Source of the DNA: a virus
Lineage: Duplodnaviria; Caudoviricetes
Virus record (IMG/VR): IMGVR_UViG_3300020069_000003
Span: 13,481 to 77,480 of that record
Direction: 5' to 3' (one strand)
DNA: 64,000 bases
Of this stretch, positions 529 to 63,617 are shown in pieces. Position numbers and translations under genes: made by a program. Under the pieces are notes generated by a model. It saw only the letters and a program-made list of their open reading frames with translations. It was not told where the DNA came from and made no database searches. Within the stretch, counting starts at the first letter, position 1. Each line of letters opens with the position of its first letter.

Positions 529-1602
529 GTGTCAACGGTGACGGTGGAGAACGCCGCCGCCGTCGCAGCCATGTTGGTGCTGGAGAAACATGCGGTCGAG
601 GCCGTGTCCGGACCCCTGCGCAGGCAGCTGTCCGACACTCTCCGGCTTCTGGCCAGCAGGTATGTGCTGATGTTCGGGGGACTGGACCGTTCCACCACCC
701 CCGCCCAGGCACAGCAGCTCGTCAGCGTATTGACTGTCGAGCTGGAGCAGATTCGACAGTACGACCCGGTACCGGCGCTGACCGCCGCCACCGACGATGC
801 CCGACGGGCGGGGGTGGTGTACGCCAACCGGCACCTGCCGGACCCGGTGTCGGAGGCAGAGGTACCGGTGGACAAGGCCGTACAGGACGCGGTCGAGGCT
901 GCCCCGGCCGCGATCTCCGACGCTGTGGACGCGGCGCAGCAGTTTGCGCAGCAGCTGCCCATCACCGGCTGGGACGACGCCGTGCGGGCGGTGGGCAAGG
1001 CCAGCCAGGCGGCCTCGAACCTGGAGGGGCGAACCTCCTGGGTGGTCAACCGGGCCAACTCGTCCTCGATCTCCTACATCGCCGCCCAGCGCGGCGCCCT
1101 GCTGCTGTGGGTGGCGGAGCCGGACGCCTGTGTAGTCTGTCTGGCGCTGTCTGGACACACGGTCAACCCGGCCGAGGGCGAAGGATTTGACGAGACGGCC
1201 ACTTTCGGAAAGCCGGGGTCGGCACCGGATATCTACCCGCCCGGTATGCCGCTGATGCGTCCGCCGCGTCACCGATATTGCCGCTGCCACCCGGAGATCT
1301 GGTACGGCCCGGCGGTACCGGCGGGCGGCCCCGAGGAGACCTCGCTGTACAACCGGCCGGGGGTCGGGGCCAACGTGGACCTGCCCGCCGCTCTGCGGCG
1401 CGAGGCCAAGCGGTCGATCCTGTACGGATGGTCGCTACCCAGCGAATCCAATATTTCACGACTCGATGCTGCGGCCCGTCTGCTGGCCAAGGGCGCAGGT
1501 CTTCCGAAGTCGGTTGAGGCCAAGTCCCGCGCGGCAGTCAACAAGGGCAAGTTCGACAACCGGGTACATCCGTCGAAGAGGCGCACTGCACACCGTCCGT
1601 AG
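529..1602 (+). CDS. Head morphogenesis / minor capsid protein (MuF, SPP1 gp7-like)
   Basis: ACVVCLALSG and PPRHRYCRC motifs; located just before the scaffold gene. Start is approximate (track start 400 overlaps the small ORF). Confidence 0.75.
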   Translation: MSTVTVENAAAVAAMLVLEKHAVEAVSGPLRRQLSDTLRLLASRYVLMFGGLDRSTTPAQAQQLVSVLTVELEQIRQYDPVPALTAATDDARRAGVVYANRHLPDPVSEAEVPVDKAVQDAVEAAPAAISDAVDAAQQFAQQLPITGWDDAVRAVGKASQAASNLEGRTSWVVNRANSSSISYIAAQRGALLLWVAEPDACVVCLALSGHTVNPAEGEGFDETATFGKPGSAPDIYPPGMPLMRPPRHRYCRCHPEIWYGPAVPAGGPEETSLYNRPGVGANVDLPAALRREAKRSILYGWSLPSESNISRLDAAARLLAKGAGLPKSVEAKSRAAVNKGKFDNRVHPSKRRTAHRP

Positions 1603-1666
1603 CCGATGTTAAACTGGCTACAGTTTGCAGATGCAGACAGCTGTCGCCCCCGTTGGGAGTTCGCAC

Positions 1667-2518
1667 ATGAGCCGTATCCGCCTGCTTCCCCCGCCCGGTC
1701 AACCGATCGGCCACCTCAGGGACGGACGTCCCGTCTACCCCGTGATCGGAGCAGCCTCCGACGAGTTCGAGATCGAGGCCGATGAGCCCGACGACGCGGA
1801 GGACGAGCCCGACGACGACGAGGAGGAGGACGAGGAGGAGAGTGGCCAGGACGGCAAGTGGACCCCTCCCTCGAAGACCGAGTGGCTGAAGGTCCAGAGC
1901 GCCCTGTCGAAGGCCAACGCGTCGGCCAAGGAGCGCCGTCTGGCGCTGGCCGAGAAGGAGAAGGCCATCGCGGAGCTGCAGAAGCGGGAGGCCGAGCGGG
2001 AGGCCGAGGCCGAGCGCAAGGCCCTACTGGACGGCCAGCAGCCGACACCGGCGGGCAAGGGTAAGAAGGGGGGCAGGGGTGGTGTAACGCCGCCTGCCCC
2101 GATGCTCCCGGACAGCGTGCTGACTAAGGCCCAGGTGCGGCAGCTGACCGCGCAGGCGGCGAAGGAGGCCGAGGAGCGTACAGCCGCCAAGTACCAGGAC
2201 AAGGTGGTGAAGGCGGCGGCTCGTGCGGCTCTGAAGGACGCCGGTGCAGCGGGCAACGTCTCCCGGCTGGTGGCGCTGCTGAATCTGGAGGAGGTCCAGA
2301 TCGACGACGACGGCGAGGTTGCCGAGGGTCTCGACGACCAGATCGAACAGCTGAAGCAGGAGCTGCCGCAGCTGTTCGCTCCGCCGGAGCCGCCCAAGCC
2401 GGTGCGCAAGCGGGCCCCGGCTCCGAAGGTCACGCCAGCCGGTCGCCAGGACATCGAGGAGCGTCCGCAGTCCTCAGCCGAGCGTATCGCCGCACTGGCA
2501 CTCGGCAACCGCGTATAG
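1667..2518 (+). CDS. Capsid scaffolding protein
   Basis: Acidic stretch plus coiled coil and an LK...P.LF motif; directly before the major capsid gene; GGGAG RBS before ATG 1667. Confidence 0.75.
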   Translation: MSRIRLLPPPGQPIGHLRDGRPVYPVIGAASDEFEIEADEPDDAEDEPDDDEEEDEEESGQDGKWTPPSKTEWLKVQSALSKANASAKERRLALAEKEKAIAELQKREAEREAEAERKALLDGQQPTPAGKGKKGGRGGVTPPAPMLPDSVLTKAQVRQLTAQAAKEAEERTAAKYQDKVVKAAARAALKDAGAAGNVSRLVALLNLEEVQIDDDGEVAEGLDDQIEQLKQELPQLFAPPEPPKPVRKRAPAPKVTPAGRQDIEERPQSSAERIAALALGNRV

Positions 2519-2632
2519 CTCTTGACGTCCTGACGTGGTAACATAGTCTCAGCTCGCGGGTGCGGGTGGGTACGGACCTGGATTGGTCTAAATCAACCAG
2601 CAACGACTCACCCAAACCCAGGAGACAAGCAG

Positions 2633-3679
2633 ATGTTCTCTGCTAACCGTCTGCCGGGCGGTCCTGGTATCGCCCCCAAGACGATCATCGGCTACATCGG
2701 CGACAGGCCGGTCTACGCCGTCGCGGGCGGTGCCCGAGACACGATGGAAGCGTGGATCCCCGAGGAGTTCGACTCCCAGGTGATCATGCGCGTGAACCAG
2801 ATCTCCGGCGTCGAGGCGCTGGGATCTCCGGTCCCCATGAACTCCGAGACCCGGTCGGTTCCCCGGTCCGCCGGTGTCGGCGTGGCGCTGGTCGCCAAGG
2901 GCGGCACCTACTCCGAGGACCAGTCGGTCAACGACTCGGTGATCCTGTCGGCGCAGAAGTTCGGCCAGGCGGTCCGGATCGCGGAAGAGGACATCGACGA
3001 CGCGATCGCCGACGTCATCGCGACCAAGCAGAAGGACTGGGCTACCTCCTACGGCAAGATGTTCGACAACGCCTGCCTGGCGACGTCGGCCGCCGTCGGT
3101 ACAGGCGTTCCGTTCGCGTCGGTGTACTACAGCCTGACCCAGACGAACTCGAACACCGGATACACCGCCAACGCCAACCTGACCCAGACCGGCAGCGCGG
3201 GCACCACCTACGCCACCCTCTCCAACTCGCTGGGCAACGTCGAGCGCGGCAACTACTTCGACATCTCGGAGATGGTCTGCCTCGCCCACCCGGCGTACCG
3301 CAACCTGCTGCGGAACATCAAGGACACGAACAACCGCCCGATCTTCCAGGAGTCGACGGCGGGCTTCCCCGGCGGCGGCATGGCCGCGTCTCCGGACACG
3401 ATCTTCGGTATCCCGATCCACTGGTCTCTCGGCGCGATGACCTCGGCGACGGCCACCCCGACCCCGACCGGCAACCCGCTGCTGATCTGGGCCAACCGCA
3501 ACTACATGATCATCGGCCGCCGGTCGGGTCCGGAGTCGGTGTTCATCGACGGCCGGAACGGCCTGTCGGCGCTGACCGACGAGTCGATCCTGAAGATGTG
3601 CGCCCGGCGCGCGTTCGCGGTCGGCCACGAGGCGGCGTTCGCGGTCCACGAGGACAACTCGGGCAACATCAACCTGTGA
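2633..3679 (+). CDS. Major capsid protein (HK97 fold)
   Basis: WIPEEF, LKDTNNRPIF-like and TIFGIPIHWS motifs typical of HK97-type capsids; position. Confidence 0.9.
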   Translation: MFSANRLPGGPGIAPKTIIGYIGDRPVYAVAGGARDTMEAWIPEEFDSQVIMRVNQISGVEALGSPVPMNSETRSVPRSAGVGVALVAKGGTYSEDQSVNDSVILSAQKFGQAVRIAEEDIDDAIADVIATKQKDWATSYGKMFDNACLATSAAVGTGVPFASVYYSLTQTNSNTGYTANANLTQTGSAGTTYATLSNSLGNVERGNYFDISEMVCLAHPAYRNLLRNIKDTNNRPIFQESTAGFPGGGMAASPDTIFGIPIHWSLGAMTSATATPTPTGNPLLIWANRNYMIIGRRSGPESVFIDGRNGLSALTDESILKMCARRAFAVGHEAAFAVHEDNSGNINL

Positions 3680-3716
3680 CGCGCGGCCTGACGGCCACCC
3701 GCGTCCCGCCACAGAC

Positions 3717-4309: not shown

Positions 4310-4939
4310 ATGTCCGCCACCGGGTACGGCCAGACGGCGGACCTGTCCAGGGTCGCCAAGGTAGGCGACATCATGTCCGGCCCGCTGGTACTCAGCGGCA
4401 GCCCGCCGCTCCAGGTGGCGGCGGGGGCGGCTGCGGGCGACGTCTGGACCTCGGACAGCCAGGGCAACGGGTCCTGGCAGCCACCGGCGGGCAGCAACAC
4501 CACCCCCTACCCGCGACAGTTCGAGGTGCGGGCAGACGGACCGGCCTCGACCCAGGTCGCCACGGTAGGTACTTGGACGCCGACCTACCTGTCGAACGCT
4601 GACACCGGCAACTTCGTCGGCTGGGTCAACATCTCCGACGGCGCCCAGAACGACAAGATCTCGTACGATCTGGCCTGCGCGGCCGGTACCTACACGGTCG
4701 AGCTTCTGCACCTGCCTTTTCAGAACCGGGGCATCTACACGATCCAGATCGACGGGGTGTCGGTCGGCACGGTCGACGGCTACGCTGCCAGCCTGACCCC
4801 GCAGCGTGCTAAGCTTACCGGCGTGGCGGTCAGCACGTCCGGGGTTCACACGGTCAGTCTGCTGATGGCGACCAAGAACGCAGCGTCCAGCAACTACGTG
4901 GGTGTGGCAGACCGGTTGACGTTCACTCGGACTGCTTAG
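4310..4939 (+). CDS. Putative virion structural protein with a beta-sandwich/CBM-like domain
   Basis: GIYTIQIDGVSVGTVDGY and VHTVSL beta-rich pattern. Confidence 0.5.
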   Translation: MSATGYGQTADLSRVAKVGDIMSGPLVLSGSPPLQVAAGAAAGDVWTSDSQGNGSWQPPAGSNTTPYPRQFEVRADGPASTQVATVGTWTPTYLSNADTGNFVGWVNISDGAQNDKISYDLACAAGTYTVELLHLPFQNRGIYTIQIDGVSVGTVDGYAASLTPQRAKLTGVAVSTSGVHTVSLLMATKNAASSNYVGVADRLTFTRTA

Positions 4940-4958
4940 GCGGGAGGGGGTGGTGTAG

Positions 4959-5807
4959 GTGACCATAAGCGTCAATCAAGGTCAGACAGCCGATCTGGTT
5001 GTGCAGTGGGACGCCTACCCGGGAGGTCCCCCTGCCGACGTTACCGGCCTGACCATAACCGTCAATCAGGTGGCCAACGGCAGCAACGTGCTAGGCCCCA
5101 CGTCGGCGGGGGTGGTGCACCAGGCTACCGGACTGTACACCTTCCAGTGGGCGGTGTCCACCAGCCAGGCGACCGGTGACTACGTGGCGATCTGGAACGC
5201 CACCTACGCCGGTTCTGCGGTCCAGACCTCCGAGATCGTAACGGTCGACGCGTACGACAACTCGGTGTTCCTGACCTGGTGCGACATCACGCTGGACGAG
5301 GATCTGATCGGCGGGCGCGGCAACGTGAACGCGGTGAATCCGGTCAACTGGGTGAACAACGTGACCGGGGTCACCCTCACCCCGCTGCAGATCCAGAACG
5401 CCCAGCAGGTACTGAACATGTTCAGCAACTACACCCCCGAGTCGTCCGGTTTCAACATGCAGCCGTCCGACCTGATGTATCTGCGCTACGGCCTGGCGTA
5501 CCAGGCGGTGTGGCAGGTGGGGCAGCCGGGCCTGCTGTACCGGAACAACGCGAAGCAGCTGTCGCAGGATGGCCTGTCGACCACGATGGACGACCAGGGC
5601 ACCGAGCGGTCTCTGATGCTGGCCCCGCTGGCGCTGCGGTCGCTGAAGCAGCTGTCCTGGCAGAAGTCCCGGTCGCTGCGGGTCCGTACGCCGTTCATCG
5701 ACGACCAGACCCCGATCTCGTCGGACCCGGACGCCGAGGCCAACGACCTGTACGAGCGCTGGGTCGACATGTACAACTTCGGCTATCGAGGAAGCTCGAC
5801 GCCGTAA
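4959..5807 (+). CDS. Head-tail adaptor-like protein with an N-terminal Ig-like domain
   Basis: Position; QDGLSTT and LAPLALRSLKQLSW pattern seen in actinophage adaptors. Confidence 0.55.
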   Translation: MTISVNQGQTADLVVQWDAYPGGPPADVTGLTITVNQVANGSNVLGPTSAGVVHQATGLYTFQWAVSTSQATGDYVAIWNATYAGSAVQTSEIVTVDAYDNSVFLTWCDITLDEDLIGGRGNVNAVNPVNWVNNVTGVTLTPLQIQNAQQVLNMFSNYTPESSGFNMQPSDLMYLRYGLAYQAVWQVGQPGLLYRNNAKQLSQDGLSTTMDDQGTERSLMLAPLALRSLKQLSWQKSRSLRVRTPFIDDQTPISSDPDAEANDLYERWVDMYNFGYRGSSTP

Positions 5808-6217: not shown

Positions 6218-6546
6218 TGCAAGCCTTCCCCACCACCACAGTCAGCATCCTGCGGGGCACCCACACCACCCCCGCCGGTGACACCGTGGACTCGCTCACC
6301 CCGGTCCACACCGGCATACCCGCATCCGTCATGGAGCGCAACCGCAACGGGATCGACTCCCAGACCCAGGACCCCCGGGTGTACCGATACACCGTCTGCC
6401 GCCTCCCGGCCGGTACCGACGTGCTCGACACGGACCTGCTGAAGGACGAGACCTCGGGCAAGATTTACTCCATCTCGGCGGTGTCTGTGCTCAACAGTCC
6501 GGTACACACGCCGGATCTGAGGCTGGACCTGCAGTACGTCAACTGA
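6217..6546 (+). CDS. Head-tail stopper/closure protein
   Basis: ATG overlaps TGA; TDLLKDETSGKIYSISAV and DLRLDL pattern; position. Confidence 0.6.
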   Translation: MQAFPTTTVSILRGTHTTPAGDTVDSLTPVHTGIPASVMERNRNGIDSQTQDPRVYRYTVCRLPAGTDVLDTDLLKDETSGKIYSISAVSVLNSPVHTPDLRLDLQYVN

Positions 6547-6834: not shown

Positions 6835-6928
6835 CCCGGCGCTCGTCCCACAAGCAAGCACCAGCGCCGTCCCCTGCAGCCGGGGTAGACCCGGTAGGGG
6901 GTGGTGTAACGACCCGACGTAGAGGAGG

Positions 6929-8395: not shown

Positions 8396-8452
8396 CCACA
8401 CCACCCCCGCCCGAACCGCCTGCCGGGCCTCCACAGAAGACAGGAGTTCTCG

Positions 8453-9501: not shown

Positions 9502-9899
9502 TCCTGCCCCGGCTGAAGTCCATGCTGTGGGTGCTGGAGATGGAGGGAGACGTAGAGTCCGACCTGTCGGTGTTCCACCGGGTAGACGACATGTACCGCA
9601 TGGGATCTCGTCGGTGGGCGGTACTGGTGCCCCGGCTGTCCGCCTACGGCGGGGCGGTCCAGTACAGACTGCGTACCTGGGACCAGCAGGAGACGGAGCA
9701 GCAGGCGCCAGCTTCAACCCCGGCACCAGCGGTTCAACCCGGGCGTACCCCGGCGGGGGGTGGTGTAGAAGTGCAGATAGCGGCAGACGGTACCCCGATG
9801 CTACCGGGCCCACCGTCGCCGTGGGACGGCAAGGAGGTCGAGGCGACACCGGCAGCTCTGCGGTTCTCGGATATCGGTGACATGTTCAGCTTCGGATGA
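9489..9899 (+). CDS. Frameshifted tail chaperone extension (gpT-like, -1 frame)
   Basis: The -1 frame is open from the heptamer through ESDLSVFHRVDD...PRLSAYGGAV. Confidence 0.7.
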   Translation, partial: PKSLILPRLKSMLWVLEMEGDVESDLSVFHRVDDMYRMGSRRWAVLVPRLSAYGGAVQYRLRTWDQQETEQQAPASTPAPAVQPGRTPAGGGVEVQIAADGTPMLPGPPSPWDGKEVEATPAALRFSDIGDMFSFG

Positions 9900-12900: not shown

Positions 12901-13141
12901 TCCCGAGCGGCTGTATGTACCGGCCGGGGCCAAGGTCGAGCCACTGGGATACGGGTTCACGCAGGCACAGAGTCCGCAGCCGACGGGAGGGGGTGGTGTA
13001 GTGGTGCAGAACCTGATCGTCAACATCACCAACAAGATGATGGCCGATTTCAGCAGACCGAACTCGCTCGACGCTAACGCGAAACTGTATGCTAAGCAGA
13101 TTCGGGACGCGCTGATCACGGTACAGAGGGACAACCCATGA
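9917..13141 (+). CDS. Tape measure protein
   Basis: 1074 aa, Ala/Gln-rich helical repeats; IARAYIQI N-terminus; IPTLAQGA...VGDAGPE C-terminus. Confidence 0.95.
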   Translation: MSDDGMGFEIARAYIQIAAKDQGLRDQVNAMLEQAVAGQVMQIQMAAKDDNLRSQVSSKVKEAEAGEQLEIPLVFESEAATEKVKAEIDEIKVESHVDLNLETGDAEAKLAGIAAEEEEVKRKSDDLGNNEGIERLRASIDGLAGDIIGLNQSTDDVRNAMSNMKRSVDDVQSSFGSSRREAQDLEVDIEVVADRADRLGESASGAASSGGGMSSMMLGMAGAALALAPALAAIPAAIGGFALGLGTAMGALKGVMAAVSAAGQEVGSAGAAGNQAAQTAFSNAIQIRNAEQAISDAKRQSAIAAQNSADSITSAEQHIADSMYSVQQAEQSLQNAEQSETLAQQALTQARQDAANALIDSQNAAADAHLSVEAAQLAVADAQQNLTAVNDNSLSTDLQKQHAALQLAQAQQQLIDAKQRDVEATQKSNQATQNGVDQAPNVLSAQRALQSAIQGVASAQHGVTQANQQAADAQHALAVAQRNAANQQISSAEAVQKAEQNLTDTIKQQQLAAAAAAASGAGGASAYQQAMQKLTPVGREIVGIILQMKQQLDGVAQNAFLPGFLKFLQDIQPLMPEVKTAITEAGQAFGGFFAQLGSLFQNKQFVQDFFEVLHQGVGFMSTVGGGFLDMFDKIVTAASQAAPIVQALGSGLSEVLSGIGDLFQGLVEGGSGAGDTIHMILTLISDLMGPVGKLVGAISSALGPALTTLMPPLSRLINALVQMLMPVIQALSPFLNLVAQMLGDILDAIDPILPQIGQLAALLVNLATQVLTPLMPLFQQLVNIIVASLSGNMSNLTKLVQELTSAMVQIMPALIPLIQDFLNLFQAVLPLISLFQQFETAVVSKVIPPIASIITWLLQLVDKILGPVTQGWTILVQEMTGWMSHIASDVQSWLGHVGQYWDNMVSFVSGLPGRIARAASGMWDGIWREFKQVYNSIANAWNNLSFTIPGIDTHIPGIGTIGGITVGIPSWADIPTLAQGANITQGGVVTVGDAGPERLYVPAGAKVEPLGYGFTQAQSPQPTGGGGVVVQNLIVNITNKMMADFSRPNSLDANAKLYAKQIRDALITVQRDNP

Positions 13142-14394
13142 CGCAGTTCGGTGTAATCAACCTGGGGCGATTTCCGCTGGTGGAGTTCCCCACCCAGGCT
13201 GCCACCGACGCCAGCGCCGCGCCATCCTCCACCACCCCCACCGGCCGCACACTGAAGATTCAGGGGCAGGAGTCGGTCCCCTCAGCGACTGAGATCGCTA
13301 CCACGTCCGCGATGCTGGAGGCCTGGCGAGCGGACATGGGGGGTCTGGTCGGCAGCTTCGTACCGGTTACGTTCACCGACAAAACGGGCCTGAACGGGTA
13401 CTACACCGTGACCGACTCGACGGCGGATCTGCAGAACTGGGAGGGGGAGCAGCAGACCCTGACCTGGGCGATCGATCTGATGCGGGTGGGCACTGACTTC
13501 GAGGTCGATGTCGAGTCTCGGCTGACCGGTACCACCCGCAACAACTCGTTCGGCCTGTCCGGCGTACGGTGGCATTCCCCGAGCATCGGACACTACTCCT
13601 ACTTCAGCGCCCAAGGGAACACCCCGAGCGTGGTAAACCGGGTCGGGTCCGACGGTACCCACGTGGTTTATGTCGGGCTGCCCGCGTCCCTCACCACCAT
13701 CCCCCGCTGGGGATGCTCGGTGTCCAACTACATGAACGGCCGAGTGAACTTCGTAGACCAGAACGGTGTCGAGCGGTCCGGTATCCTGTTCACCCCGTCC
13801 AACCCGACGAGCTGGACGTTGGCCAACGGCCTGCTGAAGGTCACTCCGGTACCGTCCGGCGCAGGTGTTCTGCGCCTACAGACCTACAACAACCCGGCGG
13901 GGTACGCTGCTGTCAAGACGTGGGACCTGCTGTTCAACGGGGCTAGTCTGGGGCAGCCCCAGGGCGTGTCGCTGCTGCGGAACGAACCCGAGATCATCGT
14001 GCTGCGCATGGTGTTCACCTACCAGTCGGTGACCCGGGTCACCTGCGACTTGACCCTGAGGCGCGGTGCCCGGCACGTCGAGGTGTTTCTGCAGTCGCAG
14101 TCGTCCGGTCAGTTCAAGATCGTGCGCACGACGCCGGAGGTGGGATCGTCAGCCACCGGGTACATCTTCGCCACCTCGGCGGACGCAGCAGGGGACAAGT
14201 ATGTGGTAGGGTCGGCCCTGTCCTTCACTTCGGACCTGGTGAACGGGGGTATCTCCTCGTCCGCGTCTGTCGTGTACATGGACGCGATGGTGGGGGCCCA
14301 GGTGTCCACCTCGGCCGCTGGTGACCTGGCGGCCGATTTGTACAATCAGTACCTGGCCACCCCGTCCGAACTGGTGCAGGGGGTACGCCGATGA
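13138..14394 (+). CDS. Minor tail protein (distal-tail-like)
   Basis: Follows the tape measure gene with ATGA overlap; beta-rich. Confidence 0.7.
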   Translation: MTQFGVINLGRFPLVEFPTQAATDASAAPSSTTPTGRTLKIQGQESVPSATEIATTSAMLEAWRADMGGLVGSFVPVTFTDKTGLNGYYTVTDSTADLQNWEGEQQTLTWAIDLMRVGTDFEVDVESRLTGTTRNNSFGLSGVRWHSPSIGHYSYFSAQGNTPSVVNRVGSDGTHVVYVGLPASLTTIPRWGCSVSNYMNGRVNFVDQNGVERSGILFTPSNPTSWTLANGLLKVTPVPSGAGVLRLQTYNNPAGYAAVKTWDLLFNGASLGQPQGVSLLRNEPEIIVLRMVFTYQSVTRVTCDLTLRRGARHVEVFLQSQSSGQFKIVRTTPEVGSSATGYIFATSADAAGDKYVVGSALSFTSDLVNGGISSSASVVYMDAMVGAQVSTSAAGDLAADLYNQYLATPSELVQGVRR

Positions 14395-14409
14395 GGGGGG
14401 TGGTGTAGG

Positions 14410-24919: not shown

Positions 24920-24954
24920 TCCGGGCGGGGGTGGTGTAGCGGGTTTCGCACTAC

Positions 24955-33691: not shown

Positions 33692-33725
33692 CCACCAGGG
33701 CACGGCCACGCACCACCCCGGATCT

Positions 33726-46305: not shown

Positions 46306-48713
46306 TTGAACCATCCGGCACCCTCGTCGGCGACGTCCTGCTGCCGGAGCTGCCGCCCGGTACCTGGGTCGCCTACGACACCGAGACCAACGGGCTGCAC
46401 CCGGACGGCGACCCCGGCACCGACAGCGGCGACCCCGGCTCGCCCCCCGCGCGCGTGGCAACCGCCAGCATCGCGTACCGGGATCCGGGGGACCCCGGTC
46501 GGATATTGAAGTACGCCTGGGGGTTCGACCAGGGCCCGCACCCCAGCAAGGACGGGCGGATACGGCGCCCCCGGGAGGGGGGTGGTGTAGAGCCGCTGGA
46601 CGTCGAGAAGCTGCTGGCGAACCTCGCCAAAGCCGGATACAACAACGGCTGGCGGGACCAGATCGGCAAGAACGGCAAGCCGCTGAAGACCCGGCTGGCG
46701 GTGCCGTGGACGGTTGAGCAGTCGTACGAGGCGGTCGGGCTGGACTCGTGGCTGCGGCTGCTGGCGTGGCTGCAGCGCCGCGACCAGCTGGTGATGCACC
46801 ACCGAAAGTTCGACGAGTGGATGACCTGGGTCGGCCCCCGCAACTGGCGCATCCGCCACGAGTGGGTGCACAACCCGGCGCTGCGCCAGACCGTCCAGCA
46901 GCTGGGGGTGTACGACCCGGAGCTGATCGATCAGCTGATGGCGGATGACCCCGATCGGGACGTAGGAGGGTGGTTCGGTGCCGATCTGGATCTGACGGCC
47001 GACGGTCACGAACGACCCGTGCGGGGTATCTGGGACACCATGCTGGTGCAGGCGTTCTTCGACCCGGACCAGTCGGTCGCGCTGAAGAAGTCCGCCAAGC
47101 GGCTGTTCGGGGTGGACGCCGACGCCGACCAGAAGGCATTGCTGGCGGCGATGGGCAAGCAGGGTACCGGACTCACCAAGCGGTACGACCTGACCCCGTG
47201 GAAGATCATGGGGCCGTACGCCGCCACCGACCCCGAGCTTACCCTGCTGCTGGCGGAGAATCAGCTGCGCCGGATCTCCGAGGGCGACCACCCCGGGGAC
47301 TCCCGGTTCCCGCAGCACCCGCACCTGCGCAACCCCAACCTGGTGTGGGACCAGATCGACAAGGAGTTCGAGCTGTCCCGGGTCCTGCTGAAGATGGAGA
47401 AGCGGGGGGTGGGATACGACGTCCAGACGTCCAAGCTGGGGGCCCGGCGTCTGCAGGCCGAGATGGAGCGGGTGCGCCAGACCATCCCGTACGACCCGAC
47501 CAAGCTGGACGAGATCCGCAGGTTCTATTTCGCACCGAAGTCCGAGGGCGGGCTCGGGGTCATGCCGCTGAAGCTGTCGGAGAAGACCAACGTGCCCTCG
47601 GTCGACGAGGCCCAGATGCGGCTGCTGATGCAGTCGGGGCACCCGGGCGCGGCCGAGTACGACCAGTGGTCGCACTGCAAGTCCGCCCTGGGCAAGTGGT
47701 ACCGGGGATGGGCCGACCGCACTGGTACGGACGGGCGTCTGCGCACCAGCTTCAAGCAGTGCGTGATGGCGGAGGAGCGGGCCGGTGCGAAACCCGGCGG
47801 CACGATCTCCGGCCGCCTGGCCGTCGGCCGGGTCCAGCTGCAGGCGATACCGCACAACGGCCAGCTGCCGGAGGTGGTCCGGGACATCCCGGTGCGCGAC
47901 CTCATCCACGCCCGGCCGGGCCACGCCCTGTGGGAGATGGACCTGCCGCAGGGCGAGGTCCGGATAGCCACGGTGGTGGTGAACTGCCGGGCGATGTGGG
48001 ACGTGATCGACTCGGGCGAGGATCTGCACGGGGCCAACGCCAAGCGTATCTTCGGCGTCACCGAGGACGACCCCCGGTTCAAGGACCTGCGGGGCGTGGC
48101 CAAGCGCATCGTGTTCGGCACGCTGTACGGCGCGGGGGTCCGGACCCTGCGCAAGCAGATACTGGAGTTCACCGGGATCGACTACTCGGAGGACGAGACC
48201 CGGGAGGCGAAGCAGGCTTTCGAGCACACCTACCCGGAGTTCCCCCGAGTCGCCCGCCAGATCCAGCGCAAGGCCGACCGCACGCTGGGCGGCGCGGGGT
48301 ACGTGAACCTGGTCGACGGGCGCAAGCGCTGGTTCGGTCCGGACGAGTTCGGCCACAAGGCCTTCAACGCGGTGATCCAGGGCGGCCTGGCCCAGTCGGG
48401 CAAGACCTGGATGATCCAGGTCGAGCGCCAGCTGCCGGGCATCCAGGTGCTGGCGATCCACGACTCGATCGTGGTGGAGGTTCCGGACAACGAGGCTGGG
48501 GCGGCGCAGGCCGCGCAGGTCGCCGCGATCGGCAAGCAGGTGTACGAGCGCGACTACGGCACCCGGGGACGCACGATGTACTTCGACATCGTCCCCGAGC
48601 GCTGGGACGAGAAGGAGCCCCCGGCGCCGACAGGCCTGGCGGACAAGGTTCGCGCCCAGCTGGCCGAGCACCGTGCCAACTCGGTAGAGGGCTTTAGGCA
48701 GCTGACCTCATGA
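46302..48713 (+). CDS. polA: DNA polymerase I (family A) with a 3'-5' exonuclease domain; candidate DpoZ
   Basis: YDTETNG, YAATD, TISGRL, LQAIP, MDLPQGEVR, RGVAKRIVFGTLYG and IHDSI. Confidence 0.95.
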   Translation: MIEPSGTLVGDVLLPELPPGTWVAYDTETNGLHPDGDPGTDSGDPGSPPARVATASIAYRDPGDPGRILKYAWGFDQGPHPSKDGRIRRPREGGGVEPLDVEKLLANLAKAGYNNGWRDQIGKNGKPLKTRLAVPWTVEQSYEAVGLDSWLRLLAWLQRRDQLVMHHRKFDEWMTWVGPRNWRIRHEWVHNPALRQTVQQLGVYDPELIDQLMADDPDRDVGGWFGADLDLTADGHERPVRGIWDTMLVQAFFDPDQSVALKKSAKRLFGVDADADQKALLAAMGKQGTGLTKRYDLTPWKIMGPYAATDPELTLLLAENQLRRISEGDHPGDSRFPQHPHLRNPNLVWDQIDKEFELSRVLLKMEKRGVGYDVQTSKLGARRLQAEMERVRQTIPYDPTKLDEIRRFYFAPKSEGGLGVMPLKLSEKTNVPSVDEAQMRLLMQSGHPGAAEYDQWSHCKSALGKWYRGWADRTGTDGRLRTSFKQCVMAEERAGAKPGGTISGRLAVGRVQLQAIPHNGQLPEVVRDIPVRDLIHARPGHALWEMDLPQGEVRIATVVVNCRAMWDVIDSGEDLHGANAKRIFGVTEDDPRFKDLRGVAKRIVFGTLYGAGVRTLRKQILEFTGIDYSEDETREAKQAFEHTYPEFPRVARQIQRKADRTLGGAGYVNLVDGRKRWFGPDEFGHKAFNAVIQGGLAQSGKTWMIQVERQLPGIQVLAIHDSIVVEVPDNEAGAAQAAQVAAIGKQVYERDYGTRGRTMYFDIVPERWDEKEPPAPTGLADKVRAQLAEHRANSVEGFRQLTS

Positions 48714-49541: not shown

Positions 49542-49601
49542 CCCGGTTTACCTCGTCAGTCTGACTGTACACCGGTGGGGCGGGGGTGGTGTACTGGCGC
49601 G

Positions 49602-50200: not shown

Positions 50201-51403
50201 ATGGCCAGTAACCTGTACGTGGTGGTTGGCGGACAGTACGGGTCCGAGGGCAAGGGAGCCGTTGCCGGACGCATCTGCGCGGACATGCAGGTCCGGGGGC
50301 AGGAGGTGGTGAACGTCCGGGTCGGCGGACCCAACGCCGGGCACACGGTGATCGGGAGGTGTCCGGCCGACTGCGGCGACACCCACGAAGTGGGCAAGCA
50401 CCCGTGGCGGCTGCGCCAGGTGCCGGTGGCGGCGGTCACCGCAGCCGACAGCACGCTGGTGATCGCGGCCGGGTCGGAGGTCGACCCGTATGTGCTGGCC
50501 GACGAGATCGGACAGCTGAACGCGGCCGGATACGACGTGGACGCCCGGCTGATCGTCGACCGGTCGGCCACGGTGCTGACTGGCGCCCACGTCACGGCCG
50601 AGCAGGTCAACGGACTGAACGCCCGGATCGGGTCCACCGCCAAAGGAATCGGCGCCGCGCGCTCCGACCGTATCTGGCGCCAGGCGCAGACCTGGGACGA
50701 GTGGGCGTCGAAGGGTGCGACACCGGCGGGCATGCTGCTGTCGGACGCGAAGGTACTGCACCAGCTGACGCGGCGCGACACCTCCCGCTGGATGTCGGTC
50801 CTGCTGCACGACTCGGCACGGGCGTCGGTGGTGATCGAAGGCACCCAAGGCTACGGGCTGGGGCTGCACACCGGCAACTACCCCAAGGTCACCTCCGGGG
50901 ACTGCCGCGCGATCGACTTCCTGGCGCAGGCGGGTATCTCCCCGTGGCAGCAGGACTGCGGCGGCTGGCCGCTGAATCTGAAGGTGGTGGTTGCGATCCG
51001 GCCCCACCCGATCCGAGTCGCAGGCGACTCGGGGTGGCTGAAGGGAGAGACCACCTGGGCAGATTTGGGCCTCCCCGACGAGCACACCACCGTCACCCGG
51101 AAGGTGCGCAGGGTCGGCGCCTGGGACCCGGAGCTGGTCCAGCAGGCGGTCCGGGCGAACGGGGGCCCGAGGCAGGGGGTGGTGTGGATGGCGCTGACCA
51201 TGGCGGACAGCGTCGAGCCCCGGCTGGCCGGTATCGACCAGGCCGTGCGCAACTGGGCCGGGGCCAGAGACGGGACAGAAGGGGAGCTGACGTTCGACAC
51301 CGTCAGCAGGTACCTGTCGACCCTCGGCACCGGTGCCCAGCACCTCGGGTACGTCGGCACCGGACCCGACACCGCGATCGTCAACGAGAGGATGTACGAC
51401 TGA
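50201..51403 (+). CDS. purZ: PurZ0-type 2-amino-deoxyadenylosuccinate synthetase (PurA homolog)
   Basis: GQYGSEGKG (Ser in place of the PurA Asp13), GGPNAGHT, IGSTAKGIG, EGTQG..L, YPKVTSGDC, EHTTVTRKVRRV, TMAD and GTGP. Confidence 0.8.
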   Translation: MASNLYVVVGGQYGSEGKGAVAGRICADMQVRGQEVVNVRVGGPNAGHTVIGRCPADCGDTHEVGKHPWRLRQVPVAAVTAADSTLVIAAGSEVDPYVLADEIGQLNAAGYDVDARLIVDRSATVLTGAHVTAEQVNGLNARIGSTAKGIGAARSDRIWRQAQTWDEWASKGATPAGMLLSDAKVLHQLTRRDTSRWMSVLLHDSARASVVIEGTQGYGLGLHTGNYPKVTSGDCRAIDFLAQAGISPWQQDCGGWPLNLKVVVAIRPHPIRVAGDSGWLKGETTWADLGLPDEHTTVTRKVRRVGAWDPELVQQAVRANGGPRQGVVWMALTMADSVEPRLAGIDQAVRNWAGARDGTEGELTFDTVSRYLSTLGTGAQHLGYVGTGPDTAIVNERMYD

Positions 51404-52252: not shown

Positions 52253-52794
52253 GCAGCACCGAGGAAACGTCAGGCGCTTTCGGCGAGGCCCTGCGCAAGA
52301 TGGCCGACGTCGTGCGCGAGGCCATGAGCAACAAGCCGCTGGTGTTCGAGCCGGTCGTGCCGCAGGGGCGGGGGGTGGTGCAGACCCCGACCGGGCCGCA
52401 GCACCTGCTGCCCACCCGGGGATACGCCGACGACGCCGGACTGGATCTGTACGTCGTTCGGGACTGCGCCATCGGACCGCACGAGTTCGTGGACGTCGCG
52501 GCCGGGGTGAAGATCGACATCCCGGACAGGCTGTGGGGTCTGATCATCGGTCGTTCGTCGACCCTGCGCAAGAAAGGACTGCTGGTCAACCCCGGGGTCA
52601 TCGACGCCGGTTGGACCGGGGAGCTGTTCGCGGGCGTGCAGAACCTGACCGACAAGACGGTCGAGGTCAGCGCCGGTGACCGGCTGGCCCAGCTGATCCT
52701 GCTGCCCGCGCCGGTGGTCGGCTACGACCCCCAGTGGGGCAGAGTGCGCGACAAGTCGCGCGGCGAGCGCGGGTTCGGGTCGACCGGAAGCTGA
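52249..52794 (+). CDS. dut: Trimeric dUTPase-family protein
   Basis: AGLDL, GRSS, GVIDAGWTGEL, GDRLAQL and RGERGFGSTG. Confidence 0.92.
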   Translation: MSSTEETSGAFGEALRKMADVVREAMSNKPLVFEPVVPQGRGVVQTPTGPQHLLPTRGYADDAGLDLYVVRDCAIGPHEFVDVAAGVKIDIPDRLWGLIIGRSSTLRKKGLLVNPGVIDAGWTGELFAGVQNLTDKTVEVSAGDRLAQLILLPAPVVGYDPQWGRVRDKSRGERGFGSTGS

Positions 52795-53135: not shown

Positions 53136-53774
53136 ATGAACGCCAAGCCCGAGACCTTGGGTACCAGCAAGACCCGTTGCGCGTGCCACGCCTACGAGAT
53201 CGAGTCGTGGATCGGGGAGGTGCCGGAGGACGGCGACCCCAACGACTACGTGCAGTACGAGGGCACCGGCTGCACCCAGTACACCGAGCGGATCTTCGCG
53301 CCGGGCCACGACGCCAAGCTCAAGTCGCTGCTGATCAAGGCCGGTGCCGCCGGTCTGGAGGTCGTGCTCCACGACGGCGGCGTGAACTCCCACGCCAGCG
53401 CCGAGCACTTCGCCAAGGGCCTGGGTTTCGAGCACCAGGTGCTGGCCGGGATCAAGCGGGCGCTGGCCAAGGCGATGGCGCGCGCCGAGAAGAAGGCCGC
53501 GAAGGTCGAGCAGAAGCTGATGTACAACGCGGAGCAGGCTGAGGCCAAGATCAAGAAGGCCCAGGCGGCTGCGAAGCAGTCGCGGGCGCCCCGCACCCAG
53601 CAGCAGCAGGTCGCCGAGAAGGCGCTGGAGACGCCCCCGTACACCATCAAGGTCGGGCGCTGGACCTACCAGGCCGTGATCGACCAGAAGGGAAACGCGA
53701 CCTACCAGACCAGCGGCGGCCAGACCAAGACCGTGAAGAAGAGCGGGTACAAGCTGGTCCCCGAGACCGCGTGA
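53136..53774 (+). CDS. Zinc-binding hypothetical protein (FAPGHDAKLKS family)
   Basis: CACH...CTQ...FAPGHDAKLKSLL. Confidence 0.75.
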   Translation: MNAKPETLGTSKTRCACHAYEIESWIGEVPEDGDPNDYVQYEGTGCTQYTERIFAPGHDAKLKSLLIKAGAAGLEVVLHDGGVNSHASAEHFAKGLGFEHQVLAGIKRALAKAMARAEKKAAKVEQKLMYNAEQAEAKIKKAQAAAKQSRAPRTQQQQVAEKALETPPYTIKVGRWTYQAVIDQKGNATYQTSGGQTKTVKKSGYKLVPETA

Positions 53775-55923: not shown

Positions 55924-56171
55924 TGGCGGTGGAGACCAGATACATCTGTACCCGGAAGCGGGTGATCGACCAGGCCTCGGTCAAGGTCGAGCTGACCGCG
56001 TCGATCTACGGCCGGGACAACGTCGAGTGGTCGCCGTATACGCCGTCCGGCTCGATAGAGATGGTGGTGAACGGCCCGGCCGGGGCTGTCTTCGTCGAGG
56101 GCGGGTACTACCGGATCTTGATCGAGAAGACCTCGCCGGACCCGGACTACACCACCCCGCCCGGTCACTGA
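55924..56171 (+). CDS. Hypothetical protein
   Basis: GGAGG RBS; WSPYTPSGSIEM. Confidence 0.6.
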
Positions 56172-57447: not shown

Positions 57448-58695
57448 CTACCGCACCGGGATCACCGTGGGTACAGGCTCCGCCGCCAGGTCCTCGTTGA
57501 TGACCCGCATCGCCACCCACTTCAGCCGGGCCTCGCGCACACCGTCGCGCGGTCCGTACCAGTAGGTGTGCCAGTGCGCCCGCCGGATGTGGGTGCGCCG
57601 CCTCCTGCCGGAGTTGTCGGCGCGGGCAGCCAGGACGGCCTGAGAACGGCGTTCGGCGGTCCTGGTGAGGGCGGGCCCGACCCGGTAGCCCAGGCTGTAC
57701 GTCTGGGCCGTCGGTGCGGCCTTCTCGGCCTGGCGCTTGCCGCTCTTGCGGGGCGGCCGGACCGGACGTGCAGCTGCCTGCAGGTCGGCGTTGACCGAGC
57801 AGCAGTACATCAGCACCGGCAGACAGATCCGCAGGATCGTACGGGTCCAGGCGCGGACCTGATCCCGGTCTCCCTTCTCCACCTCGACAGCGTCCCACTC
57901 GGCGGCACTCAGGTCGGACGCCGAGTCCACTGTGAACTCGTGGTCCAGCGGGACCGACACGCCCGACAGGTCCCAGTCGGTGGGCGTGTCCCCCGGCCGT
58001 CCGATCGAGGACAGCGCACAGATCTGGTAGTGCGACGCGGTCTCGTCGGCGGTGGAGGTGGAGTACTGGCCCAGACCCAGGCCGCGCACGAAGAAAGCCC
58101 ACGTGGTACCTTCGGACCCGTCCGCCAGCACCACCGGGATACCCTGCGGCAGCAGGAACACCGGGTCGGCGTGCGGCAGCTGGCGCAGGATCTGCGGCGG
58201 GATGGGGGAGCCGCCGGGGTCGGTGTCTATCAGGGCGCGGTGCAGGGCGGGGTCGACCGAGTAGGCGACTCGAAGTTTCTCCCAGTTCAGCGCCAGCTGC
58301 GTGTCGGACACCGACCTGCGCACGTAGGCCCGGTGCTCCGCAGTCATCTGGCGGAACACCTGCACCGCCGCCAGCCACCGGACCGAGGACCGGGTCTGTG
58401 TCCTCTTGGTGTCGGCCAGCGCCTCCAGGTTGAACTTCCACAGCACCCCGCGCCCGACGCCGAAGTACGCCTCGATCATCTCCAGCGCTCGCTTGGTCGA
58501 CATGTTCGGCGGGAGGGGGTGGTGTAGCGCCTTGGTTCTCTCGTAGGCCTGGTGGGCGCGCTGCCTCTGGCACCGGATGAGGTTGCGTATCTCCTCGGCG
58601 ACCTGTTCGGCAGGAACGTCGCCCGGGGCGTCGTACGCCATGACCTCGAACAGGTTCAGGTCGATCGGTATACCGGCTTCTCGATTCAGGTCCAC
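57448..58695 (-). CDS. Hypothetical protein
   Basis: Long ORF with RRRTHIRRAHWHTYWYGP and W...RVIN C-terminus; start uncertain. Confidence 0.7.
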   Translation of the reverse strand: MDLNREAGIPIDLNLFEVMAYDAPGDVPAEQVAEEIRNLIRCQRQRAHQAYERTKALHHPLPPNMSTKRALEMIEAYFGVGRGVLWKFNLEALADTKRTQTRSSVRWLAAVQVFRQMTAEHRAYVRRSVSDTQLALNWEKLRVAYSVDPALHRALIDTDPGGSPIPPQILRQLPHADPVFLLPQGIPVVLADGSEGTTWAFFVRGLGLGQYSTSTADETASHYQICALSSIGRPGDTPTDWDLSGVSVPLDHEFTVDSASDLSAAEWDAVEVEKGDRDQVRAWTRTILRICLPVLMYCCSVNADLQAAARPVRPPRKSGKRQAEKAAPTAQTYSLGYRVGPALTRTAERRSQAVLAARADNSGRRRRTHIRRAHWHTYWYGPRDGVREARLKWVAMRVINEDLAAEPVPTVIPVR

Positions 58696-60605: not shown

Positions 60606-60667
60606 GTTACTCCTTGTATGAACGGCCCGGCGGCCGGGTGACCGCCGGGCGGGGGTGGTGCAGCGGG

Positions 60668-61464: not shown

Positions 61465-61755
61465 ATGGACACCGCCGAAAGCTCCGCGTACGACTCGTAC
61501 CTGGGCGGCATGAACCCCGGTCCGAGGTACGACGGCCAGCCGAACGTCAAACCGGGCGACGACTCGCGCGGTACACCACCCCCTGCCGGTACACGCGTCC
61601 GCCACGTGCGTTCAGGAGAGACCGGCGAGGTCACCGGCGTGCACGTTCACGGCCACACGGGCGAGCGGATGCCGACGGTACGCTGGGACGGCCAGGCCGC
61701 CTCTGGCTTCACCTCCGACCAGGGATACAGTCTGGACAGCTTGACCAATCCGTAA
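61465..61755 (+). CDS. SH3/KOW-like domain protein (third paralog)
   Basis: AGTRVRHVRSGETGEVTG...PTVRWDG; leaderless. Confidence 0.6.
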   Translation: MDTAESSAYDSYLGGMNPGPRYDGQPNVKPGDDSRGTPPPAGTRVRHVRSGETGEVTGVHVHGHTGERMPTVRWDGQAASGFTSDQGYSLDSLTNP

Positions 61756-62789: not shown

Positions 62790-62873
62790 GGAGAAGCCGC
62801 CGATTTGGCGACGGCAGCACACTGCTAATGTGTAGGCCCCCGGGTCTTGCGGGTTCGACTCCCGCCTTCTCCG
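62790..62873 (+). tRNA. tRNA-Ser(GCT)
   Basis: GGAGAAG/CTTCTCC acceptor; GCCG/CGGC D stem; GCACA-CTGCTAA-TGTGT; long variable arm; GCGGG-TTCGACT-CCCGC; G discriminator; no encoded CCA. Confidence 0.85.
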
Positions 62874-62913
62874 CTCCTCGCCGCACCCCAGAACCGCGTG
62901 CTATCCTGGCGTC

Positions 62914-63168
62914 ATGACAGCTGTATTCGCCTCGCCGCCGGAGCCGGGTACCAGACCTAAGTACCCGTTCGCCGAGTGGCTGAACGGTCAGCAGTGGGTG
63001 CTGACCCGGGGCCGGGACTACTGGGGACACCCCGACGTCCTGATCCGCAGCATCGAGGCCTCCGCCCGCGCCCGGCGCCTGCGGGTAACCTGCACCTACG
63101 ACACCAACACCCGCTGCGTCTACGTGCGCGCCTCTACCTGGAACCCTGATGGTGAGACTGACGCCTGA
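62914..63168 (+). CDS. Small hypothetical protein (YPW.EW.DG type)
   Basis: KYPFAEWLNGQQWVLTRGRDY. Confidence 0.65.
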   Translation: MTAVFASPPEPGTRPKYPFAEWLNGQQWVLTRGRDYWGHPDVLIRSIEASARARRLRVTCTYDTNTRCVYVRASTWNPDGETDA

Positions 63169-63343
63169 CCACTGGGCGGCTATGACCATGCGCGCCGACG
63201 GACACACCTACGCCACCATCGCCCTCGAACAGGACTGCAGCCTCGACGAGGCCAAGAATCGGGTGCAGGCGGTGGTGAAGGTGCTGCAACTGCGCCTGCT
63301 GAACGAAGTGGGGAACGATGGTGGCGAAGAGAACGGCAGCTGA
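63149..63343 (+). CDS. Small HTH-like protein
   Basis: GHTYATIALEQDCSLDEAKNRV. Confidence 0.5.
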   Translation: MVRLTPDHWAAMTMRADGHTYATIALEQDCSLDEAKNRVQAVVKVLQLRLLNEVGNDGGEENGS

Positions 63344-63617
63344 GCGCTATGCCGCCCGCAAGATACGGGTGGCGGTTGACTTACGTGCCCGTACGATCGC
63401 GGCGGCCGACCAGGGAGCGCACCACGCCCGCCTGCGCGCGAGGTACGGTCCGGACTGGCGCGGGGTGCTGCACAGGAGTCTACAGCGTCAACTGGACGAG
63501 TGGTACGCCGTGGTCGAGCGTAACCCATACCGCAGCCTGTCCGACCCCGAAATCGGGTATTATGACTCGGAACGCGCCGGGCTGTTTCTGCGCCGACCGG
63601 GCAGAGGGGGGTGGTGA
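63318..63617 (+). CDS. Hypothetical protein
   Basis: Coupled ORF. Confidence 0.5.
   Translation: MVAKRTAAERYAARKIRVAVDLRARTIAAADQGAHHARLRARYGPDWRGVLHRSLQRQLDEWYAVVERNPYRSLSDPEIGYYDSERAGLFLRRPGRGGW

Follow-up and report, generated by a model that had tools for sequence, protein, structure and literature searches.

Cluster A mycobacteriophages carry stoperators (the L5 gp71 sites), asymmetric 13-bp sequences that follow transcription, lie mostly in short intergenic gaps and are found in temperate phages with a repressor. The uptake signal sequences (USS) of the Pasteurellaceae and the DNA uptake sequences (DUS) of the Neisseriaceae saturate the host chromosome at about one copy per kb, and the FtsK-orienting polar sequences (KOPS) and SpoIIIE recognition sequences (SRS) are G-rich polar words that FtsK and SpoIIIE read to orient the DNA translocase. 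The primase-polymerases (PrimPols, PF09250) pRN1 ORF904 and phage NrS-1 PrimPol require the template sequence 5'-GTG-3', best as GTGG or GTGA, and start immediately 5' of this site, which is left uncopied (PMC2034472, PMC8718748). The ORF904 primer is about 8 nucleotides (nt) long, and NrS-1 also uses the 8-nt site 5'-TTTGGTTA-3' (PMC2034472, PMC8718748). In Chi-saturated phages the sites lie predominantly in the active orientation, at 20 of 23 sites in LLS (one per 1.86 kb) and 32 of 32 in MD8 (PMC12315714). Here we analyze a 64,000-nt stretch (the window) of an actinophage-like siphovirus of 67% G+C, which spans bases 13481–77480 of the 77,480-bp viral record IMGVR_UViG_3300020069_000003 and whose numbering is used for all motif coordinates. 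It carries a G-rich word, GGGGTGGTG, that is a real, strongly selected, lineage-specific and strand-polar DNA-level signal. By the tests we ran, the word fits no known family and behaves most like primase sites or Chi, and a literature search returned no paper describing either this word or its variant in Streptomyces phage Hiyaa.

The original prediction had listed about 50 genome-wide copies of the motif where about two would be expected by chance, and both figures held. The window contains 53 copies (38 plus, 15 minus), all within 3 bases of the listed coordinates, against a mean of 2.37 and a maximum of 6 in 100 dinucleotide-preserving shuffles. The whole 77.5-kb genome has 67 copies (50 plus, 17 minus), a density of about one per 1.2 kb, with plus-strand copies every 1.5–2.5 kb. 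The longer form GGGGGTGGTG(T) is the most over-represented 10–11-mer under an order-3 Markov model (55 vs 1.1 expected, z = 42) and ranks first in four related contigs, too; with a maximal-order Markov model the k-mer test was uninformative, as enrichment extends to the sub-words. The extended consensus, C-GGG-C-G-GGGGTGGTG-T-A-G, has about 13 informative positions over 18 nt and is alike in genic and intergenic copies, if anything stronger in the latter, so that the conserved flanks are not a coding artefact. GTGG (core positions 4–7) is invariant in 67 of 67 copies, and T5, T8, T10 and A11 are among the most constrained positions of the word. Of 92 occurrences of GGGGTGG, 67 continue with TG, and near copies are few (67 exact vs 19 near, at a position weight matrix threshold that shuffled sequence passes about twice).

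The enrichment persists when the coding content of the genome is preserved. Fully within genes lie 45 copies, a sixfold excess over synonymous-codon shuffles (7.8 +/- 2.2, maximum 15) that is larger still over codon-order shuffles (2.5 +/- 1.6), and the word occupies 45 of the 67 positions that the proteins permit. Protein sequences have thus been molded to accommodate the word as G-V-V, G-G-V or T-T-P, the tripeptides as which the motif had been said to be translated. The remaining 22 of the 67 copies are intergenic and fall in 12% of the genome, a 2.7-fold enrichment. These and all other gene contexts rest on our own gene calls.

The polarity of the word follows the DNA axis and not transcription. 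Pooled over five word-rich genomes, which were turned to a common orientation and include some orthologous sites, plus and minus copies number 71:24 in plus-strand genes, 15:6 in minus-strand genes and 43:14 between genes, so that a plus bias of about 75% is the same in all three contexts. The strand of the word does not depend on that of the gene (Fisher P = 0.79). In this genome alone, four of five copies in minus-strand genes lie on the plus strand, and the relatives G001 and G003 add sites elsewhere; the pooled 15 of 21, all antisense to their genes, would have P = 1e-5 if the word tracked transcription. Another 24 of the 95 copies in plus-strand genes are antisense and share the same extended consensus. 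This strand independence rules out an RNA-level signal or a stoperator as the main role of the word, and it bears out the original prediction that the plus bias persists inside minus-strand gene blocks and marks a DNA-level signal independent of transcription. Furthermore, spacing is more even than random in three complete genomes (coefficient of variation 0.56–0.76 vs about 0.97, P 0.0005–0.04), and plus copies are uniform along the genome. A second strand-biased word, AAGGCCAA(G), is found at 27:5 in G001 and 28:4 in G003 and may be a coding effect (Lys-Ala-Lys).

Scanning viral contigs with the extended word recovered relatives of 72–98% nucleotide identity, in which the word is conserved. 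Among whole records, G001 (74.6 kb) has 36 copies and G003 (77.3 kb) has 44, and the fragments G004 and G005 have 13 each, compared with 0–2 for a reversed-word control. Aligned sites are kept exactly at 12 of 18 positions in G004, 11 of 21 in G003 and 8 of 10 in G005, vs 13–16% for random 9-mers, and identity is 0.84–0.91 in the core vs 0.71–0.75 in the flanks. G001 keeps just 5 of 18 sites yet holds its 36 copies, which points to site turnover under selection for density.

Other relatives are poor in the word. G002 (57 kb) and G006p (65 kb), a contig from a metagenome-assembled genome (MAG), have 8 and 6 copies and keep 3 of 18 aligned sites; in the alignments, the sites inspected differ from their motif-poor homologues by substitutions and not by insertions. 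Both share the terminase, portal, capsid (88% amino acid identity) and tail genes at 72–79% nucleotide identity, including the same TerL (84% amino acid identity), TerS, portal and ParB-like gene. By tblastn, G002 and G006p have no PrimPol, PolA, DinG, exonuclease, Sak4, DUF669, PurZ-like or dUTPase-like gene, an absence that is less certain in G002 (75% complete). Only one of the ten largest early-region open reading frames of G006p has a Pfam match, an extracytoplasmic function (ECF) sigma factor (L140:12058-12675, minus), and none is a polymerase or primase. The top repeated word of G006p (loci L140–L143), TGACCGGAAC, has 8 copies and contains GGAAC, the usual −35 element of ECF promoters, and that of G002 (loci L125–L127) is CCCTCGCGGCG, with 10 copies.

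The early region of the phage analyzed here has the gene order of Hiyaa: a PD-(D/E)XK exonuclease, a Sak4-like AAA_24 protein, DUF669, PrimPol/PriCT_1, a DinG-family helicase, a family A polymerase, a PurZ-like adenylosuccinate-synthetase and a dUTPase-like gene. The word and the PrimPol are both found in G000, G001, G003, G004, L182 and the Hiyaa lineage and both missing from G002 and G006p, and a contig with a 75%-identical PrimPol carries the present word at 8:0 in 13 kb; Bennie, Ghobes and PermaG, however, have a PrimPol with a weak word or none. Among the relatives, the word tracks the replication module: those that share the structural genes but have no matches to the module are word-poor. 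The same distribution sorts the readers proposed in the original prediction. Only word-rich phages have DinG, the exonuclease and Sak4, whereas the XRE (24324), ParB-like and TerS genes also occur in word-poor ones. A parS or packaging site is disfavoured by the asymmetry and dispersal of the word and by the relatives that have the same terminase, portal and ParB-like gene without it. The LuxR-like helix-turn-helix gene (36232) is unique to this genome, and the motif occurs in relatives without the gene.

The word is not a feature of the actinobacterial genomes searched. A capsid search led to a 65-kb relative binned in an Actinocrinis MAG and to prophage-like capsid genes in Streptomyces. The 9-mer occurs in the Actinocrinis MAG and four Streptomyces genomes at 0.02–0.04 per kb, about 1.5 times the reversed-word control, and the 10-mer in 301 Actinomycetes genomes at no more than about 0.03 per kb vs 0.71 per kb in the phage. 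Eight of these 301 genomes are unpublished (G272, G016, G045, G039, G052, G041, G033 and G024), and the claim is independent of them. Across all 306 actinobacterial genomes the word is more than 20-fold rarer than in phage (0.7–0.9 per kb), and its ratio to the reversed-word control does not exceed about 2.4. Among the genomes searched, the word belongs to the phage lineage and not to the host. A host-wide motif of the Chi or USS type was rejected on the same counts, with no enrichment in the 306 genomes searched.

Streptomyces phage Hiyaa (NC_048139.1, 83 kb, host S. lividans), whose PrimPol is 48% identical, carries the variant GG(G/C)GGTGGCGG. Its GGTGGCGG core is present in 77 copies (43:34, about 0.9 per kb) where 15 are expected, and a longer form, GGGTGGCGG, at 27:12; a Hiyaa-like contig carries the Hiyaa word as well. 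In four Streptomyces genomes, none of them the recorded host S. lividans, the Hiyaa 9-mer occurs at 0.08–0.09 per kb, 1.3 times the control. The only proteins common solely to Hiyaa and the clade of the present phage are DinG, a 212-amino acid (aa) protein and a DUF6011 protein. Hiyaa (loci L144, L132 and L145) and the Hiyaa-like contig L186 also have a second word, GGGGGTAACGG, with 10 copies vs 0.04 expected.

We also considered whether the word is a general trait of phages with PurZ (Z-genome), and rejected it. None of Bennie, Ghobes, PermaG, S-2L and Parvaparticeps shows enrichment of GGGGGTGG, and de novo k-mer scans of these phages gave no word with z > 9. Other PurZ phages have homologous exonuclease, Sak4, PrimPol and PolA genes and no strong word; modest GGTGG-containing top words occur in Bennie (GGGTGGCG, 18:4) and Parvaparticeps (GGTGGCGG, 8:23), both of which carry PrimPol. 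DinG was likewise rejected as a sufficient predictor, as 13 distant DinG-encoding viral contigs are without any G-rich word, and a single-protein scan for DinG relatives gave no match. An unrelated DinG-encoding contig of 75% GC, L167 (IMGVR_UViG_3300033067_002578), has 7–9 copies of TGGCACCAGT(G) in 17.9 kb vs 0.02–0.6 expected.

Together, these results require a reader that moves along the whole genome with one polarity and accompanies the phage replication and recombination genes. The reading we rank first, although tentatively, is that the word provides preferred start sites for the phage's own pRN1-type primase-helicase, which matches the Prim-Pol (PF09250, 1.8e-18) and PriCT_1 (7.2e-9) profiles. 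As at pRN1-type PrimPol sites, GTGG is central in the word, the word is strand-specific and a protein with PF09250 and PriCT_1 domains is encoded by the phage. The flanks add five more conserved letters 3' of the PrimPol-like site and 8–9 conserved G/C-rich letters 5' of it, where the primer would be templated. The reader, the direction of replication and the priming step are inferred. The phage replisome would read the word on single-stranded DNA as the priming site of the PrimPol-helicase, with GTGGTGTA as the recognition element, itself uncopied, and with the 8–9 G/C-rich nt on its 5' side (CGGGCGGGG) copied into a short and very stable primer. Plus copies would start Okazaki fragments on the lagging-strand template as forks move rightward with most genes, and minus copies would serve forks of the opposite direction or restarts. 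The interval of plus copies corresponds to the usual length of Okazaki fragments, where both this length and the direction of replication are assumed.

Several observations weigh against primase start sites. Sites of pRN1-type PrimPols have 3–8 letters and are not reported as over-represented, evenly spaced words, unlike the present word with its roughly 13 positions, and we know of no primase that needs at least 13 informative positions. Plain GTG(G) is in any case common. In Bennie, Ghobes and PermaG, a homologous PrimPol is encoded but no comparably strong word occurs, and the Hiyaa 8-mer is almost without strand bias. One copy in four lies on the opposite strand, and of the 17 minus copies 11 cluster at 14–34 kb of the genome, among the structural genes and the adjacent minus-strand genes, where the local ratio is about 13:11; this clustering recurs in the equivalent region of G003 and fits the model ad hoc only. 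GC skew is weakly suggestive, and among origin-like features the 724-nt stretch at 22860–23584 has neither iterons nor an AT-rich block. Module co-occurrence also fails to single out the primase. A more specific form of the primase reading, about which we are slightly more doubtful, is a long (13–18 nt) lineage-specific priming code of evenly spaced, strand-polar sites within the phage's genes that would tell the primase-helicase where to start each Okazaki fragment and would co-evolve with the primase (GGGGTGGTGTA here, GGGGGTGGCGG in Hiyaa). Such a code might, in addition, label the DNA of the phage as self, in a genome where 2-aminoadenine probably takes the place of adenine.

The main rival, which we regard as unlikely but the best placed of the alternatives, is a Chi-like signal that attenuates a helicase-nuclease which loads at a free end of phage DNA, either AdnAB or RecBCD of the host or two phage proteins together, for example DinG and the PD-(D/E)XK exonuclease. 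Concatemers would thereby be protected and recombination-dependent replication through Sak4 supplied, and the signal could also identify phage DNA as self. In its favour, the word is asymmetric, rich in G and holds TGGTG as does E. coli Chi (GCTGGTGG), from which the Hiyaa GGTGGCGG differs at no more than two of eight letters. With the terminase genes at left, about 75% of the copies are top-strand, which may correspond to the active orientation in LLS and MD8, and the word resembles the sites of these phages in its density (about one per 1–2 kb), its presence within genes and its top-strand share (75–100%) (PMC12315714). Related phages differ sharply in word content by early module, as lambdoid phages do, and DinG is common only to the two motif-bearing lineages. 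A host Chi, however, should be over-represented, and the word is not in the 306 actinobacterial genomes, nor is the Hiyaa word in the four Streptomyces genomes counted; of the Chi-like cue in the original prediction, what survives is a rival reading and not a host-wide Chi. A phage-encoded reader would avoid this objection, but we know of no phage enzyme that reads Chi and of no precedent for a DinG-exonuclease pair. Furthermore, known Chi sites are 5–8 letters long, shorter than the present word, whose copies are evenly spread and not massed at one end, and distant DinG-encoding phages are without such a word. Chi-rich lambdoid phages also lack recombination genes (PMC12315714), whereas the word-rich phages here carry their own.

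Less probable is that a phage-encoded protein binds the copies as double-stranded DNA and serves as a global silencer, as a roadblock of the stoperator kind or as an organizer of nucleoid or condensation. The site is sharply defined and asymmetric over 13–18 bp like the operator arrays of Cluster A mycobacteriophages, has a lineage-specific variant in Hiyaa and is enriched between genes. The candidate binders are the two small proteins common only to Hiyaa, the 212-aa protein and the DUF6011 protein (25025–25645), neither of which has an informative match in Pfam, PHROG, PDB or Atlas. The 212-aa protein has a Cys-containing N domain, a Lys/Ala-rich helix and a weakly SH3-like C domain. Its AlphaFold model (predicted local distance difference test score 80.5) has only four sequences behind the alignment, and its Foldseek matches are weak, SH3-like and not significant (all E >= 0.08, about 0.1). 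Against such a binder, the orientation of the copies ignores transcription and two thirds of them are genic, the even genome-wide spacing suits a tracking process better than local regulation, and double-strand binding alone leaves the strand bias unexplained. The record, rated 100% complete, has no tyrosine integrase or large serine recombinase (PF00589, PF07508), and for this reason the phage looks lytic from its gene content.

A G-quadruplex role appears very unlikely. Here the G-rich strand would form a two-tetrad quadruplex (GG-N-GG-N-GG-N-GG) when single-stranded, and DinG would handle or exploit it. Four GG runs with loops of 1–3 nt are present in 49 of the 67 copies, the Hiyaa word keeps the pattern as GG-G-GG-T-GG-C-GG with a variable G/C loop position, and DinG/XPD-family helicases, one of which is common only to the two motif-bearing lineages, unwind G-quadruplex DNA. 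The four Cys of the phage DinG are invariant across four aligned homologues. However, the two-tier quadruplex seed of the original prediction, which we keep as a minor rival, leaves the constrained non-G positions T5, T8, T10 and A11 and the preference for TG after GGGGTGG unexplained, as a quadruplex does not need them; 18 of the 67 copies are without the pattern, two-tetrad DNA quadruplexes are weak, and distant DinG-encoding phages have no G-rich word. The least credible reading is an RNA-level signal, a strong Shine-Dalgarno-like mRNA sequence for translational coupling or pausing, which draws on the copies 3–10 nt ahead of starts or supplying stops (4947, 14397, 49583, 18989, 36044 and 36721) and on the pairing by hand, not computed, of GGGGGUGGU over 9 positions with what we take to be the 16S rRNA 3' end (G-U wobbles included), but only about 6–10 of the 67 copies are at junctions and many copies in genes of either strand are antisense.

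The word shares individual traits with the other known systems. Like stoperators, it has many asymmetric copies of at least 13 bp genome-wide and lineage-specific variants; the stoperator-like repressor site of the original prediction was nevertheless rejected because the orientation does not flip in minus-strand genes, 45 of the 67 copies are fully genic, the phage has no integrase or serine recombinase, and the XRE gene is also present in motif-poor relatives. Like USS and DUS, it occurs at about one copy per kb, with an extended consensus, preferred reading frames and inverted pairs as intergenic hairpins, but an uptake sequence was rejected because the word is so much rarer in the bacterial genomes counted and is specific to the phage lineage. 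Like KOPS and SRS, it is a G-rich polar word along a replicon, but its skew is weaker than that of KOPS and there is no dif-like convergence point. The annotated FtsK/SpoIIIE-like gene of Hiyaa has no homologue among the predicted proteins of this phage. Repeats described in Microbacterium phages are intergenic and transcription-following, unlike the present word.

A minority of copies coincide with hairpins and gene junctions (Table 1). The word lies directly ahead of the starts at 4959 and 14410, as had been noted before, and at 19000, 36055 and 36732 it provides the stop codon or adjoins it; at 63617, a fourth proposed stop, a TGA overlaps the word but no gene is called as ending there. Hairpins, start-adjacent copies and stop-codon copies look like co-option of an abundant word. 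Under the primase reading, inverted pairs would have been co-opted as intergenic hairpins, and junction copies would double as ribosome-binding sites or stop codons.

Table 1. Word copies, hairpins formed by inverted copies, and genes of the replication and recombination region with a candidate DNA binder, in window numbering.
Feature	Positions	Strand	Context
Copy	693..701	-	antisense, + gene 478-1602
Copy	811..819	+	sense, + gene 478-1602
Copy	2076..2084	+	sense, + gene 1742-2518
Copy	4498..4506	-	antisense, + gene 4310-4939
Copy	4947..4955	+	gene junction, 3 nt ahead of start 4959
Copy	5109..5117	+	sense, + gene
Copy	6264..6272	-	antisense, + gene
Copy	6898..6906	+	intergenic; kept in G003
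Copy	8399..8407	-	intergenic; kept in G003
Copy	9757..9765	+	sense, + gene
Copy	12990..12998	+	sense, tape-measure gene; kept in G004
Copy	13230..13238	-	antisense, + gene; kept in G004
Copy	14397..14405	+	gene junction ahead of start 14410; kept in G003, G004
Copy	14985..14993	-	antisense, + tail gene
Copy	15285..15293	-	antisense, + tail gene
Copy	15642..15650	-	antisense, + tail gene
Copy	17615..17623	+	sense, + gene
Copy	18989..18997	+	followed by TAG stop at 19000
Copy	19192..19200	-	hairpin left arm, convergent gene junction
Copy	19238..19246	+	hairpin right arm, convergent gene junction
Copy	19293..19301	+	within - gene
Copy	20386..20394	-	sense, - gene
Copy	21058..21066	+	within - glycosyltransferase gene; kept in G003, G004, G002
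Copy	23166..23174	+	724-nt stretch between divergent gene blocks, no gene called
Copy	24928..24936	+	intergenic
Copy	26470..26478	+	sense, + gene
Copy	27313..27321	+	sense, + gene
Copy	28667..28675	+	intergenic
Copy	29431..29439	+	sense, Sak4-like gene
Copy	30888..30896	+	sense, PrimPol-helicase gene
Copy	32634..32642	+	sense, PrimPol-helicase gene
Copy	33711..33719	-	1-kb non-coding stretch ahead of Ro60 gene
Copy	34468..34476	+	sense, Ro60/TROVE gene
Copy	36044..36052	+	followed by TAA stop at 36055
Copy	36721..36729	+	followed by TAG stop at 36732
Copy	37503..37511	+	sense, DinG gene
Copy	39276..39284	+	left arm, intergenic hairpin
Copy	39300..39308	-	right arm, intergenic hairpin
Copy	41182..41190	+	left arm, intergenic hairpin
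Copy	41206..41214	-	right arm, intergenic hairpin
Copy	42922..42930	+	sense, + gene
Copy	43006..43014	+	sense, + gene
Copy	44225..44233	+	sense, + gene
Copy	44367..44375	+	sense, + gene
Copy	46579..46587	+	sense, PolA gene
Copy	49583..49591	+	10 nt ahead of gene start
Copy	51176..51184	+	sense, PurZ-like gene; kept in G001, G003, G005
Copy	52372..52380	+	sense, dUTPase-like gene
Copy	56150..56158	-	antisense, + gene
Copy	58516..58524	+	within - gene; kept in G005
Copy	60652..60660	+	between two - genes; kept in G005
Copy	61574..61582	-	antisense, + gene; kept in G005
Copy	63608..63616	+	intergenic by own gene calls; kept in G005
Hairpin, inverted motif pair, convergent junction	19191..19247	.	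-47 kcal/mol, z -4.5
Hairpin, inverted motif pair	39271..39313	+	-45.8 kcal/mol, z -5.2
Hairpin, inverted motif pair	41179..41217	+	-38.6 kcal/mol, z -4.2
PD-(D/E)XK exonuclease	27490..28371	+	recombination module
AAA_24 protein	28876..29814	+	Hiyaa homologue annotated as Sak4-like annealing protein
PrimPol-helicase, candidate reader	30479..32941	+	820 aa, pRN1-type PF09250 + PriCT_1; no match in motif-poor relatives
DinG-family helicase	37128..39098	+	common only to motif-bearing lineages
Family A DNA polymerase (PolA)	46302..48713	+	
PurZ-like adenylosuccinate-synthetase homologue	50201..51403	+	
212-aa protein	53136..53774	+	common only to Hiyaa; weak candidate DNA binder

The structural proteins are likewise actinophage-like. 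The tape-measure protein has weak matches to Gordonia, Mycobacterium and Rhodococcus phages, and the major capsid protein is about 50% identical to Streptomyces phage counterparts. Public runs containing the phage are rhizosphere metagenomes and metatranscriptomes from several studies, and no near-identical phage was matched in the cultured-phage collection. The record ends in a 123-bp exact direct repeat (window 63878–64000, identical to record bases 1–123) that starts within a gene. As the related contig G005 reads straight through this junction, the simplest view is that the genome is circular or permuted and that the repeat arose as an overlap in assembly.

We also identified a cluster (46302–52794) of the family A polymerase, a 169-aa protein, the PurZ-like gene, a 166-aa protein and the dUTPase-like gene. 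The PurZ-like protein is 52% identical to the annotated 2-aminooxy adenylosuccinate synthetase (PurZ) of Hiyaa, and adenine is probably replaced by 2-aminoadenine (Z) in the DNA of the phage. A Ro60-type gene (34008–35693) with TROVE and Ro60 vWA domains (E 2e-20 and 7e-36) is preceded by a 1-kb non-coding stretch (32942–34007) and is also present in the word-poor relative G002 (59% amino acid identity). Between the tail and early genes, a minus-strand block (19996–22860) codes for a group-1 glycosyltransferase and a NAD-dependent epimerase/dehydratase and is kept in every relative, whether word-rich or word-poor. At 42160–44298, a GDSL-type lipase/esterase (376 aa) adjoins a GH25 muramidase, and the pair may form a lysis cassette.

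Few genome-wide polar words are known, among them Chi, KOPS and the uptake sequences, and from each it was learned how a machine that moves along DNA senses direction or distinguishes self from non-self. In the lineage described here, the phages reshaped their own proteins for the sake of such a word, filling two thirds of the permitted positions. The word is also a simple marker for spotting this phage group in metagenomes, and the cultured relative Hiyaa, which grows on S. lividans and carries the variant, opens the reader to experiment. If it were a helicase-nuclease, the word would be, as far as we know, the first Chi-like signal for actinobacteria or for a phage-encoded enzyme. If it were the primase, the phages would have a sequence-coded system for priming Okazaki fragments.

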